Shown: in pieces, positions 39,207 through 46,800 of the stretch
Layout of the letters: each line of letters opens with the position of its first letter
How positions within the stretch are numbered: the first letter of the stretch is position 1
NCBI RefSeq assembly: GCF_030013595.1
Contig: NZ_CP122768.1
DNA length: 64,000 nt
Source: Escherichia coli
Lineage (GTDB): Bacteria > Pseudomonadota > Gammaproteobacteria > Enterobacterales > Enterobacteriaceae
Strand: one strand, 5' to 3'
The notes under the pieces: model-generated
The model's input: only the letters and a program-made list of their open reading frames with translations
Databases searched by the model: none
What the model was told of the DNA's origin: nothing
Position numbers and translations under genes: made by a program

Positions 39207-40049
39207 TTATGAAGGTAACACTCCCGGATAGTGTTTCGCAATAATCTCATTCAGCCTGTCAACCAGTTCTGGTTTCCTGAACGTGATGTGTGCGGAGCCC
39301 TTCTTAAAGTATCTGATGCTGAACATCTCATCTTCATAGTCCTCTTTACCTTGAACAGACTGGATGTGGTCATCCAGATGAATGGTGATGTTTTCCCGGT
39401 TGTCGGGGATCGGTTTGCCGCTGAACAGGTGCAGCATTCTTTCCAGATCGGCAAGTCGATCGGCCTGTTGCCCGGTGATAAGATGAAACCCCCATCTGTC
39501 CCACCTTACCAGGTTGTTGACGATAATTTTACTGCCAAACTTGCAGGGGCAATTGGTTTTGTAATTCCAGCTCAGTCCCCTGAAGACGTTGATCACCCCC
39601 CGCTCAAACACTTCATCTTTGTTCTGGTGCAGTTGTTCAAATGTGCTCAGAATGTTCGCTTCACTGATTTCCGGAAAATTATCGTATTCCAGTGATCGGT
39701 ACCATGTATCACGGGCCTGTGCATCCATTAAGGAAAGCATCCCTGAACGTTGCATCAGGTCACGCCAGATTTCGCGGTCAAGATTCCGGGTAATGGCTTT
39801 CATTGCCGTTTCAGGTTTCTCCATGAGCCAGCATCCGCAGCGAAAATCCTGTTTCATGGCCCAGTCCGGGGCAGTTTTACCTCCGATGCTTTCCGTCAGC
39901 ACCGAGATTTCAGCCAGTTGCCGGATAAGTGTGTCGATTTGCAGCAGTGTATTCTTTCGTACAGCCAGAATGTGGCAGATTGAGGTGGAACAGATAACGT
40001 CCGTATGCCCGTTGACCACTTCCGGACGGGAGACTGTGATTTTAGACAT
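39207..40049 (-). CDS. Island hypothetical protein (possibly DUF4942-like, as often found downstream of cbtA-type toxins)
   Basis: 280-aa ORF at the distal end of the CP4-44-like gene string; family name from memory only. Confidence 0.5.
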   Translation of the reverse strand: MSKITVSRPEVVNGHTDVICSTSICHILAVRKNTLLQIDTLIRQLAEISVLTESIGGKTAPDWAMKQDFRCGCWLMEKPETAMKAITRNLDREIWRDLMQRSGMLSLMDAQARDTWYRSLEYDNFPEISEANILSTFEQLHQNKDEVFERGVINVFRGLSWNYKTNCPCKFGSKIIVNNLVRWDRWGFHLITGQQADRLADLERMLHLFSGKPIPDNRENITIHLDDHIQSVQGKEDYEDEMFSIRYFKKGSAHITFRKPELVDRLNEIIAKHYPGVLPS

Positions 40050-40145
40050 AATCGATATTCCTTTTTGCAGATAAATGAAAACGCCAGCCCTGTTCAGGCT
40101 GGTGTCAGTGGAATGAAGTCTGGTGAGTGAGATGATGAGTAAGAC

Positions 40146-40394
40146 TCACCGGTTCTGTTGCAGAAGCTGTAGTTGGCGCAGGGTACGGATATCTTCCCTG
40201 GCCTGTTCAATGCAGGGCAACAGTGCTGCTGAATCCGTTCTATCCTCATCGTTGTCGAAGATAATCCCGGATTCACAGTCGATATTGTCCTGCAGCCACG
40301 CAATCAGAATATCCAGCGCCGTTTCTGTCGTTAATGATTTCATGTTGTGAATTTCCCTGATTACCAGTCGAAAGTGGGCAGACCCGGCAGACAT
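40146..40394 (-). CDS. Small island hypothetical protein
   Basis: 82-aa ORF overlapping the 3-prime end of the upstream ORF; typical small island gene. Confidence 0.4.
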   Translation of the reverse strand: MSAGSAHFRLVIREIHNMKSLTTETALDILIAWLQDNIDCESGIIFDNDEDRTDSAALLPCIEQAREDIRTLRQLQLLQQNR

Positions 40395-40849
40395 TCAGCG
40401 CAGGCATCCAGATGAATGAGACTGACGCCATAACGGCGAATGAGCGTGACGATCAGACGACGAAACGTTTTTGACAGGCCTAGGCGTTTAAGTCGCAGAA
40501 CCGGGTACGACCACGCATCGGTACGTAACAGATATCCGCTACCGGTAAAATGAATCCATTCTGATTCGCCGAAGTCATTCGTCTGATGTGACAGCGAGTA
40601 CAGCCAGGCGTTGTCCTTTGCCGTGATATGCGCGGTACTGCAGCGTATGCCGGTAAGGGCCGCAGATGGTGGCGTGCGCTCTGCTGATGTCCGGTCAGAT
40701 TCATCAACAACACGAAGGGAGTAACCGTTATCGCAGACCACGTTAATCAGTTCAGCGAGAGTAACACCATCGACGTCAACGACAATGCGCCCCATGTTCA
40801 GTGCCTGCACGTTAATGCTGTCGGCTTCCAGCGTCAGGGCCAGTTTCAT
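40361..40849 (-). CDS. Hypothetical protein downstream of CbtA (YeeW-like position)
   Basis: 162-aa ORF whose start overlaps the cbtA-family stop by 4 nt (ATGA). Confidence 0.5.
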   Translation of the reverse strand: MKLALTLEADSINVQALNMGRIVVDVDGVTLAELINVVCDNGYSLRVVDESDRTSAERTPPSAALTGIRCSTAHITAKDNAWLYSLSHQTNDFGESEWIHFTGSGYLLRTDAWSYPVLRLKRLGLSKTFRRLIVTLIRRYGVSLIHLDACAECLPGLPTFDW

Positions 40850-41223
40850 TGTTTCGCCCCCGGATGTTTACCCAGGGTAATGTTATTTACCGTTCTGTAA
40901 TTGTCGCGGGCCATCAGGCCGGTTGCCCGGCGGGCCCGGAGGATATCAATACTGTTTATTAACTGAGAACGGGTACAGGCGCTGAATCCCGGCTGGTCGG
41001 TACGTACCAGTGCGTATTTTTCAACGAGAAAGTTCACCGCATCGCACAGTGAAATGCCTGCCTCAATATGCTGCTCAATCACACGTTCATCAGCGAACGG
41101 TGTGTCATTCAGTGTGAGGCCGTAATGCTGGTCCAACAGTCGGGTGAGCAGTGTCTGCCAGATGGTGACGGGAGACGGGCAGCGCGATGCCTCCCGTACG
41201 TGTGTGTCAGGTAATGTTTTCAT
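40846..41223 (-). CDS. CbtA-family toxin (YeeV/YkfI/YpjF type)
   Basis: Product from internal ATG MKTLPDTHVREASRCPSPVTIWQTLLTRLLDQHYGLTLNDTPFADERVIEQHIEAGISLCDAVNFLVEKYALVRTDQPGFSACTRSQLINSIDILRARRATGLM... closely matches CbtA. Confidence 0.82.
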   Translation of the reverse strand: MKTLPDTHVREASRCPSPVTIWQTLLTRLLDQHYGLTLNDTPFADERVIEQHIEAGISLCDAVNFLVEKYALVRTDQPGFSACTRSQLINSIDILRARRATGLMARDNYRTVNNITLGKHPGAKQ

Positions 41224-44885: not shown

Positions 44886-45032
44886 GACTGACCTCTGAAA
44901 TGAACGTACGGTGTTATTGATAATGATGGAAGGTATGCAGTGACTGTTCAGGGAATGACGTAGCCGTATATTTAGTTTTCTGTTCAACATATTGTCTCCA
45001 TACCTGTCGGGACGGCTTTGGCAGGCCGGCGA

Positions 45033-45713
45033 TCACAGGTTAAAGGTGTTGATAAGTTTATGGATGAAAGAGAAATGTGGCAGGGCGGAGATAAAACGCT
45101 CTTCAGCGACCAGACTGTGGATGTGGCCTCTCCGTTCAAACCGTTCTGATGTCAGGCTGACTGATTTGATATCTGCCAGAGGAAAGACCTGCAGTTTTCC
45201 CTTCTGTAACGCGATCAGATACCAGCTACCGCTGTAATAAATGAGCCGGCAGGGCTCCAGTGACGGATACCATCGCTCAGTCATCAGAGAGATGTGGATA
45301 CACTGTCTTATTGCCAGGATGAGTTGCGAGAAACACTCGGGGAACGTTGCAGTGATATCCGGCGCCGGTAGCCAGATAAGGCAGGGAGAGGGCTCCTGGT
45401 TGTCGGTAAGACAGGTTATCAGTCGTCCGTTCCGGAGCGGAAGTATCCGTGCGATCCCGGTATTCTGTATAAAAGAAAGCATTTCAGGGATCGCACCTGG
45501 GCTGCTCTGTCGTCTGAGACTGTACCGGCCATTTCTGTACTCTAAGTCCAGGTGAACCAGACGCTGATGAAAATCGCGCTGTAAGGTACGTTCTGTAACA
45601 CCAAATTCATCTGACAGTGTTTTTAGTGACAGAGATTCTCCGGCCATCAGTCGGCTGATAATGAGTGATAAGCGAACCGCCAGGCGATCATGCCGGGAAC
45701 GATTATCAGACAT
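45033..45713 (-). CDS. WYL-domain transcriptional regulator (YfjR-like)
   Basis: N-terminal HTH (RLSLIISRLMAGESLSLKTLSDEFGVTERTLQRDF) plus WYL-like C-terminal region. Confidence 0.7.
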   Translation of the reverse strand: MSDNRSRHDRLAVRLSLIISRLMAGESLSLKTLSDEFGVTERTLQRDFHQRLVHLDLEYRNGRYSLRRQSSPGAIPEMLSFIQNTGIARILPLRNGRLITCLTDNQEPSPCLIWLPAPDITATFPECFSQLILAIRQCIHISLMTERWYPSLEPCRLIYYSGSWYLIALQKGKLQVFPLADIKSVSLTSERFERRGHIHSLVAEERFISALPHFSFIHKLINTFNL

Positions 45714-45915
45714 AGATGTGCACTCCGTAAGAAAACATCTTTTATTTCATGATGTTATTATGCATCATGATGTTGAAAGGATGTGTCGCATCCGAATAAT
45801 CAGAAATAAAATGCAGCAGAAAAAATATTCCTTTAATTATCTGATTTTTAAGCAGGGTTTCATAAAAAGAAGAATGCTTGTTAATCCAGCGACACATCCT
45901 GTCGGCGTGAGTGTG

Positions 45916-46800
45916 TCAGAACAGACGATCCCACAGTGTGACCAGCAAGTGGATAATGCGGTCCCGGGCCTTACGCAGAAGCTGTAACATCCAGGCCGGA
46001 AAGCTGAATTGGGCAACGGCAGCGTCAAAGCTTTTCCCGATGGCGTCACCAAAAGTTTGTTGTGCGTGTTTCCGGGCCTGTTCAGAGCGGTTTTCCCCCC
46101 GGATATGTGAATAAACTGCGCTGGTTGCCTGTGGTGGCAGTGCGTGGATCATCAGCGACACCAGTGCCGGAAGATTCCAGCCGACAGGTGCGGCAACGGA
46201 GAGTACCGGAAATGATGACGGGAACAGGGTTGCCACCCGGGCTGTTACTGTCGCCAGTGAGAGTTCCTGCTGACGGGACGGGCATTTTTCTGTGTCGTTC
46301 CATTCTTCAGCAGGAAACACGCGATCGGCATGGCTGAGAACAAACAGAAAACGCGAGGGATCTGCACCTTCATTCAGTAAAAACTGATGCATGGCAATAT
46401 CAGCAGCATACGCACGTTCATCAGCCCGCAGGATCCAGATAATCAGATCCAGTTCCGGCAGTAACTGACGGTAAAGCTCCCGGTATTCCTGATCATGCTG
46501 CGGTGTCTCACCAATGCCGGGCATATCGACCAGCGTCATTCTGCGTTCACCGAGCTGCAGGGTAAGACGATGAGCCTGGCGGGTGCAGCCGTTCAGGGGA
46601 TGCGTGGCGCAGATACGGGACTGAAAAATGGCATTACACAGACTGCTTTTGCCGGTGCCGGATTTACCCATAATGCCAATTACGGGCTCGTAATGAATAA
46701 CACCGTGGAGATGTTCAAGGATTTTCTGGCGAATTTCTTCAGGAAGAAACGTCAGATATGATTTTACTTGTGCAGAGAGGGAAGAATGGCTGAATGACAT
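45916..46800 (-). CDS. Island GTPase (YfjP/YeeP/YkfA family, 50S ribosome-binding GTPase fold)
   Basis: P-loop GIMGKSGTGKSSLCNA and DMPGIGE switch motif; 294 aa. Confidence 0.8.
   Translation of the reverse strand: MSFSHSSLSAQVKSYLTFLPEEIRQKILEHLHGVIHYEPVIGIMGKSGTGKSSLCNAIFQSRICATHPLNGCTRQAHRLTLQLGERRMTLVDMPGIGETPQHDQEYRELYRQLLPELDLIIWILRADERAYAADIAMHQFLLNEGADPSRFLFVLSHADRVFPAEEWNDTEKCPSRQQELSLATVTARVATLFPSSFPVLSVAAPVGWNLPALVSLMIHALPPQATSAVYSHIRGENRSEQARKHAQQTFGDAIGKSFDAAVAQFSFPAWMLQLLRKARDRIIHLLVTLWDRLF

Follow-up and report, generated by a model that had tools for sequence, protein, structure and literature searches.

Why should an island of Escherichia coli carry, between a GTPase gene and a series of conserved backbone genes, a gene for an exported protein that belongs to no nameable family? 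The question is raised by an open reading frame (ORF) of 225 amino acids (aa) on the minus strand, at 44208-44885, of a 64,000-nucleotide (nt) stretch of an E. coli chromosome (contig NZ_CP122768.1). This whole stretch is referred to herein as the window; all positions follow its numbering, and genes were read from the ORF list and from Pfam matches. An original prediction, made from the sequence alone, held that the island follows the layout of the K-12 element CP4-44, and that the 225-aa gene, for an unknown secreted protein, stands in the place of flu, the gene for Ag43. We report herein that the gene is largely a standard component of one common version of the island, ordinary rather than novel cargo. 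It is likely that the 225-aa gene, a YfjP-family GTPase lineage and, usually, a WYL-type regulator form a conserved left-arm module, the exported product of which may be non-enzymatic. Directly observed are the order of the genes, their conservation and linkage, the signals for export and the purifying selection.

Distribution and linkage of the 225-aa gene

The gene is present in 1843 of 5426 complete E. coli genomes (34%), at 2408 places and in up to 5 copies per genome. Nearly the same distribution is seen for the accompanying GTPase lineage (1870 genomes, 2508 places), and the GTPase itself is 95-100% identical among islands with the 225-aa gene (tblastn synteny table). The protein, WP_001097301.1, occurs in identical form on at least 1000 contigs and is named a "hypothetical protein" in every source, one of which lists it as MULTISPECIES [Enterobacteriaceae]. 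Eight E. coli loci were sampled, seven of them picked at even steps along the identity ranking. All eight display the order GTPase-(WYL)-ORF-DUF905-DUF932-antirestriction-RadC-DUF987-CbeA-CbtA, at differing chromosomal sites, and none contains an Ag43 gene.

Homologues with 55-66% identity occur in Klebsiella, Citrobacter, Enterobacter, Lelliottia, Atlantibacter and Trabulsiella; at every locus fetched from Klebsiella, Citrobacter, Atlantibacter and Trabulsiella, the gene lies after the GTPase gene and before DUF932. Even a distant relative of 336 aa and about 27% identity (P0071) sits in the arrangement GTPase-WYL-X-DUF932, and another (P0089) is located after a WYL gene. Since distant relatives keep the same context, the 225-aa gene appears to be an old component of the arm. 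A plasmid search for homologues returned 5 records only, a genome scan with an alignment of close relatives returned 6 loci only, and none of 50,697 annotated phage genomes yielded a homologue. A reading of the gene as unusual cargo could therefore not be upheld: the gene recurs at the same position, at many sites and in several genera, and its frequency and constant linkage are those of a common backbone protein of these islands.

Two further observations concern the relatives. The alleles at loci L013 and L020-L022 (Klebsiella, Citrobacter and Atlantibacter) differ from one another by a synonymous divergence (dS) of 0.03-0.09, versus a dS of about 2 from the E. coli allele; the low values indicate that the island arm was probably transferred recently among these three genera. 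At locus L016 (GCA_050673215.1), genes for TIR-domain, AbiGi and SymE-toxin proteins lie downstream of a distant GTPase-WYL-X-DUF932 arrangement, which amounts to a defence-island context.

The island and its left arm

The region appears to be the integrase-distal conserved arm of an island of the CP4-57/CP4-6/CP4-44 kind inserted at selC. Its features are as follows.

39048..39071, minus strand: exact 24-nt copy of the 3' end of tRNA-Sec (selC); 0 matches in 100 shuffles
39207..40049, minus strand: DUF4942 protein, final conserved gene of the right arm (Pfam 9.1e-70; RefSeq label of the identical protein)
40146..40343, minus strand: DUF957 small protein (RefSeq label of the identical FORC_031 protein, and tblastn)
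40361..40849, minus strand: DUF5983 protein (Pfam DUF5983_N 1.8e-31, DUF5983 2.4e-22)
40846..41223, minus strand: CbtA-family toxin of a type IV toxin-antitoxin pair (Pfam CbtA_toxin 3.8e-63; start per RefSeq)
41270..41644, minus strand: CbeA/YeeU-family antitoxin (Pfam CbeA_antitoxin 8.2e-55)
41724..41945, minus strand: DUF987 (YeeT-like) protein (Pfam 9.3e-39)
42008..42499, minus strand: RadC-like JAB domain protein (Pfam RadC 3e-45; RefSeq start 42484)
42500..42979, minus strand: antirestriction protein, PF03230 (Pfam 2.4e-37)
43061..43879, minus strand: DUF932 protein, first right-arm gene in common with Ag43-type islands (Pfam 6.6e-51)
43919..43948, minus strand: candidate terminator, a GC-rich hairpin with a 13-bp stem and a T run, between DUF905 and DUF932
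43969..44202, minus strand: DUF905 protein (Pfam 1e-31)
44208..44885, minus strand: 225-aa exported protein (ORF list; no family match)
45033..45713, minus strand: transcriptional regulator of the YafY/YfjR type with helix-turn-helix (HTH) and WYL domains (Pfam WYL 5e-05, HTH_11 6.7e-05; PADLOC WYL 2.6e-18)
45747..45774, no strand assigned: candidate operator, two TCATGATGTT copies 18 nt apart that overlap short palindromes, just upstream of the WYL start
45916..46800, minus strand: YfjP-family small dynamin-like GTPase of 294 aa (MMR_HSR1 4.9e-15; Dynamin_N 2.6e-10; PADLOC LeoBC 3.2e-08)

The genes that the original prediction had listed, from the GTPase to a YeeW-like gene, were all found at these positions and on this strand, with Pfam support for all of them save DUF957 (no Pfam match at E<=0.001). 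The label "YeeW-like" is fair: K-12 YeeW is a truncated, 64-residue form of the DUF5983 family, which aligns to the first 64 residues of the DUF5983 protein with 63% identity over 60 residues. The nine right-arm families (DUF932-antirestriction-RadC-DUF987-CbeA-CbtA-DUF5983-DUF957-DUF4942) are all present, co-directional and in order. An identical order is found at E. coli loci L005-L007 and L009 and, apart from DUF905, at the Klebsiella locus L013. The adjacent genes with CbeA and CbtA domains are predicted to form a type IV toxin-antitoxin pair.

The regulator shares 43% identity with K-12 YfjR; its WYL domain scored 23.7 bits, above the cut-off of 21.8, and its HTH_11 domain 23.1 bits, slightly below the cut-off of 25. 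Membership of the GTPase in an Eleos (LeoA/LeoBC) system was considered and rejected: only the C-terminal part of the protein matches LeoBC, weakly and at positions 459-550 of 601 (3.2e-08), and LeoA is absent. PADLOC assigned neither the 225-aa protein nor its neighbours to a defence system, this partial match and a generic WYL match aside.

The selC copy, obtained with what we take to be the selC sequence as query, is located 136 nt past the DUF4942 gene and probably represents the integrase-distal end of the island. The 64-kb window contains no complete tRNA gene; the integrase gene and the intact selC lie outside it. In FORC_031, setC-yicL-nlpA adjoin the same DNA, and this flanking arrangement matches that of the window. 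The 8-kb stretch itself is 99.3-99.9% identical to many complete genomes. An Rfam scan of the whole window gave no match, and so no isrC-like RNA.

How, then, does this arm relate to that of Ag43-type islands? At three Ag43 loci, the order is GTPase-agn43-(yeeR-like)-(irmA)-(DUF905)-DUF932, in agreement with the published flu-yeeR-irmA(aec69)-aec70-aec71 cluster (PMC6480617, PMC4807369). Both island types lie at the distal end of tRNA-associated islands, and they have in common the right arm from DUF905/DUF932 to DUF4942, including the hairpin before DUF932. Across the two types, protein identity in the genes DUF932 through DUF4942 is 83-97% (92-96% for DUF932), and homology at the DNA level extends over 39035-44182 of the window, with 88-91% identity. 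It ends inside the 5' end of the DUF905 gene, and none was detected to the left of about 44182. In the slot between the GTPase and DUF905/DUF932, Ag43-type islands hold agn43, with or without yeeR and irmA, whereas the window holds the WYL regulator and the 225-aa gene; agn43 (flu), yeeR and irmA are all absent from the slot in the window. Moreover, the window GTPase shares only 36-37% identity with the GTPases that adjoin Ag43 (tblastn) and 33.5% with the K-12 yeeP fragment, and is not of the YeeP lineage.

Because the GTPase lineage differs and DNA homology stops inside DUF905, it is the whole left arm that differs and not one gene: a YeeP-type GTPase with agn43, yeeR and irmA in one type, versus the GTPase, WYL regulator and 225-aa gene in the other. 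Judged from these comparisons, the two appear to be alternative left arms, each with its own GTPase, and not the products of a gene-for-gene replacement. Thus, the predicted replacement of Ag43 by the 225-aa gene is correct as to the slot but not as to the unit exchanged, which comprises the entire left arm, GTPase included. An Ag43-type island is found next to yicL at locus L009 (E. coli isolate 131, NZ_OW849064.1), near the chromosomal site of the window island; therefore, both versions of the left arm appear to occur at or near selC in different strains.

The hairpin before DUF932 is a landmark of the boundary at which the variable left and the shared right arm meet. It is kept at 10 fetched E. 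coli loci of both types (L001, L005, L007-L009, L019 and L025-L028). Its core is a perfect 9-bp inverted repeat (GCCGCGTCT / AGACGCGGC), which is kept even at L008, where DUF905 is missing. DUF905 starts 5 nt downstream of the 225-aa gene, and a promoter-like site is found at 45863-45836 on the minus strand. The WYL regulator, the 225-aa gene and DUF905 probably constitute one transcription unit.

Several neighbouring features lie beyond the arm. A 376-aa orphan ORF (46985-48115, plus strand; G+C about 0.34) is divergent from the GTPase gene and has no match in Pfam, NCBIfam, PHROGs or PADLOC. Other islands have different "hypothetical proteins" of about 310-407 aa at its position, so that the real variability appears to be located at this position rather than at that of the 225-aa gene. 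Within 38800-39071, a short fragment of a rhuM pseudogene lies between the selC repeat (39048-39071) and setC, and may be what is left of an earlier insertion at that site; the minus strand holds a full-length RhuM-family gene at 63079-63993 (Pfam 7e-114). On the plus strand, an inovirus Gp2-family gene (49629-50359) is split into two ORFs by a 1-nt homopolymer deletion at about 49842 (A6, versus A7 in FORC_031); the split may reflect pseudogene formation, slippage or an error of sequencing. Further plus-strand genes of the island are those for an Mrr_cat-type restriction endonuclease (50687-51565) and an H-NS paralogue (53327-53767), and an ORF for the EAST1 (astA) heat-stable enterotoxin (MPSTQYIRRPTSSYASCIWCATVCASCHGRTTKPSLAT; 51716-51832, plus strand) is embedded in a transposase fragment.

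The exported protein and its possible role

The 225-aa ORF is a genuine gene under purifying selection. When E. coli is compared with other genera, its ratio of nonsynonymous to synonymous divergence (dN/dS) amounts to 0.11-0.16; among E. coli alleles the ratio is 0.20-0.30. Its full-length close relatives are all 225-229 aa long. A longer reading frame of 260 aa, with its start at 44990, was rejected in favour of a start at the conserved Met, 44885, as in-frame stops interrupt it both in E. coli H8 and in every other genus. The 35 in-frame codons by which it is longer (44886-44990, minus strand; MLNRKLNIRLRHSL...) resemble signal peptides of lipoproteins among the distant relatives (P0094, MLNKKLNMRVLRHSL...; P0092; P0101). 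In other islands stops interrupt this stretch, which may be what remains of the N-terminus of an ancestral lipoprotein.

Inspection of the sequence reveals a signal peptide at residues 1-20, with a basic n-region, a hydrophobic core and an A-x-A cleavage motif; it is followed by an N-domain (about 21-140) with four invariant Cys residues, a variable linker (141-152) and a C-domain (153-225). The product has no match in Pfam, NCBIfam, PHROGs, PADLOC or PDB sequences. On both counts, a signal-peptide sequence and no nameable family, the original prediction was borne out. When 1.84 billion representative proteins were searched exhaustively with a profile, 61 relatives emerged at E<=0.001. One strong hit, P0062 (7945 aa, 2.6e-56, 53 matched stretches), was discarded as an artefact: it is an RTX-type adhesin whose acidic, Thr/Asp-rich repeats match by composition. 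The longer relatives (230-490 aa) have the N-terminal domain in common, and often the C-terminal domain as well, with added linkers or an extra domain; no meaningful partner domain was found in them with Pfam.

All 20 of 20 diverse relatives carry either a signal peptide of the signal peptidase (SPase)-I type or a lipobox. In 6 of the 7 lipoboxes, the +2 residue is Asp, which in enterobacteria serves to retain lipoproteins in the inner membrane. Across 20 members, down to 17% identity, only Met1, Trp23 and the four Cys residues are invariant. Because the invariants are limited to these residues, and none of the conserved positions is catalytic, the protein is read as non-enzymatic. AlphaFold2 gave a mean confidence (pLDDT) of 79 for the full-length protein, in which residues 1-20 are disordered (pLDDT <50), and a pLDDT of 92 with a pTM of 0.86 for the N-domain alone. 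The predicted fold consists of an IalB-like beta domain and a PepSY/cystatin-like alpha+beta domain.

These likenesses are distant ones. The top structural match of the N-domain is IalB, the invasion-associated locus B protein of Bartonella (PDB 3dtd), with 6-8% identity. None of the 20 family members matches Pfam IalB (presumably PF06776) at E<=5; the four-Cys pattern is specific to the 225-aa family, and any functional link to IalB is putative. The resemblance of the C-domain to PepSY/cystatin-like domains (YpeB, YpmB and the propeptides of M4 proteases) is at the level of the fold only: at E<=5, the window protein has no match to PepSY (PF03413), and one of the 20 relatives matches at E=0.03. 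In BFVD, the fold of the N-domain is found in small uncharacterised proteins of T4-like Vibrio and Aeromonas phages, and one relative is encoded on a phage-like contig near an endolysin gene.

The following explanation is proposed. The left-arm module would be a common alternative to the arm with a YeeP-type GTPase and agn43-yeeR-irmA. The WYL regulator, the 225-aa gene and DUF905 would be transcribed as one unit ending at the hairpin before DUF932. The 225-aa product would be exported by the Sec pathway and cleaved after Ala20; two disulfides would stabilise it in the periplasm, and those relatives with a lipobox would be tethered to the inner membrane. At the periplasmic face, the protein might then bind or inhibit a component of the envelope, without catalysis, in the service of the element. 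While the explanation as a whole, centred on the module, appears likely, its mechanistic part, the binding or inhibitory role in particular, is a tentative suggestion that may well prove wrong.

Several observations weigh against it. Motif matches are not above those in shuffled sequence (promoters, 4 versus 3.8; terminators, 3 versus 3.1), and because they are no commoner than in shuffles, the operon model serves as a hypothesis only. Regulation by WYL appears not to be obligatory, because the WYL gene is missing from some islands that keep the ORF, namely those of E. coli H8, a metagenome-assembled member of the Enterobacteriaceae (L019), and the Klebsiella, Citrobacter, Atlantibacter and Trabulsiella loci. 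Structural matches of the C-domain are generic, with cystatin, NTF2-like, VirB8-like and PepSY folds scoring alike. The presence of several copies per genome argues against a role in excluding the same element. Finally, the 225-aa protein did not turn up in literature searches that covered its accession, the GTPases, yfjR/WYL and the K-12 slot genes.

Could the ORF instead be spurious or decaying, with no function? That it is annotated as merely hypothetical and has no domain model would fit, but the dN/dS of 0.11-0.30 across E. coli and four other genera, the constant length, the Cys and Trp residues that are invariant down to about 20% identity, and the confident structural models make this explanation next to untenable. 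Very improbable, too, is a CP4-44 backbone in which only flu/Ag43 has given way to a cargo that is unusual or confined to the strain. The 225-aa gene does occupy the position of agn43-yeeR-irmA, and no family can be named for its product; nevertheless, a third of complete E. coli genomes and other genera carry it with constant linkage, the adjoining GTPase is of another lineage (36% identity), DNA homology ends inside DUF905, and distant relatives are found in the same context. Nor do the 1843 genomes represent one clone, as their hosts, sequence types and insertion sites differ.

The two other alternatives concern function. A factor released to interact with the host or to promote virulence, by analogy with IrmA or Bartonella IalB, would be consistent with the signal peptide, with IalB as the top structural match, with the frequency of these islands in pathogenic E. 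coli, and with the slot, which is that of irmA in Ag43-type islands (PMC4807369); we nonetheless regard this role as distinctly unlikely. Somewhat less remote, albeit still unlikely, is a factor for exclusion or immunity in the envelope, which blocks phage, conjugative transfer or a toxin or hydrolase that acts in the periplasm. The protein is exported, its lipoprotein relatives bear the inner-membrane retention signal, like many exclusion proteins, and its neighbours include the antirestriction gene and other genes of arms that deal with incoming DNA. The relative beside an endolysin gene, the N-domain fold in small proteins of T4-like phages and a PepSY/cystatin-like C-domain, a fold used by hydrolase inhibitors, point the same way. 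On the other hand, no homologue was detected among the 50,697 annotated phage genomes, PADLOC gave no match, the structural links are all generic, and as many as 5 copies per genome speak against exclusion of the same element.

With the conserved left-arm module as the preferred explanation, the practical value of these findings is mostly corrective. A family of islands that is very common in enterobacteria has two or three standard left arms; the present arm is one of these, and annotation should treat it accordingly rather than as a rare exchange of cargo. A third of E. coli genomes encode the 225-aa protein, yet it is annotated as hypothetical and has no family model. A Pfam/NCBIfam model together with a study of localisation and phenotype would close a small but widespread gap in the annotation of E. 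coli. As far as literature searches show, neither the 225-aa family, for which Pfam and NCBIfam have no model, nor its one-to-one linkage to the GTPase has been described. A study of the protein might in addition reveal what island GTPases of the YfjP/YeeP type do.

Comparison with K-12 elements and IrmA

The comparison of the window with CP4-44 in the original prediction proved half right: the arm is of the CP4 type, but is nearer to K-12 CP4-57 and CP4-6 than to CP4-44, which is without a WYL regulator, DUF905, DUF932 or antirestriction gene and is the poorer template. The order is yfjP-yfjQ-yfjR-ypjK-yfjS-yfjT ... lfgA-lfgB-ypjJ-yfjZ-ypjF in CP4-57, and ykfA-yafZ-ykfK/L-yafY-ykfB-ykfF-yafX-ykfG-ykfH-yafW-ykfI in CP4-6. 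Both share with the window a YfjP-family GTPase, DUF932, WYL, antirestriction, RadC and DUF987 families and a pair of the CbtA/CbeA type. DUF905 is common to the window and CP4-6 (ykfF), where it precedes the antirestriction-to-toxin genes. The WYL regulator is represented by yfjR in CP4-57 and by the remnants ykfK/L in CP4-6. Unlike the window, both K-12 elements have the DUF932 gene directly behind the GTPase gene, and their GTPases, YfjP and YkfA, are 34-35% identical to that of the window.

After the WYL regulator, CP4-57 and CP4-6 contain a gene for a small peptide, then YfjS/YafY, and then YfjT/YkfB. YafY/YfjS is an inner-membrane lipoprotein with a lipobox and Asp at +2, and YkfB/YfjT have signal peptides. 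As candidate homologues of the 225-aa protein, YkfB/YfjT and YafY/YfjS were both rejected (BLASTP E>0.1; hhalign probability <5%). In the sister island type, the gene immediately upstream of DUF905 encodes IrmA (PDB 5EK5), likewise a small protein with a signal peptide (PMC4807369). It is a secreted mimic of an interleukin receptor and forms a domain-swapped dimer with a fibronectin-III-like fold (PMC4807369). Homology of the 225-aa protein to IrmA was rejected, with no similarity in sequence or profile or among the structural matches listed, and a search of PDB with YkfB gave no match to IrmA.

Each GTPase lineage travels with exported proteins of its own: YeeP with Ag43, YeeR and IrmA, YfjP/YkfA with YfjS/YafY and YfjT/YkfB, and the lineage of the present island with the 225-aa protein. 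One might imagine that the GTPase and the exported protein are a functional pair, the GTPase driving, for example, membrane remodelling or the release of its neighbour's product in vesicles; we consider this a long shot. LeoABC dynamins reportedly have been proposed to act in membrane remodelling or vesicle release. If the pairing were true, it would also address the unexplained secretion route of IrmA, and the 225-aa proteins would then constitute a new class of periplasmic effectors or inhibitors encoded by islands.

The kind of island is already known, and its exact sequence is found in thousands of genomes. In the K-12 elements as in the window, the slot behind the regulator appears always to encode envelope proteins. 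The architecture of a GTPase, a WYL regulator and an exported protein is one that K-12 itself exemplifies.

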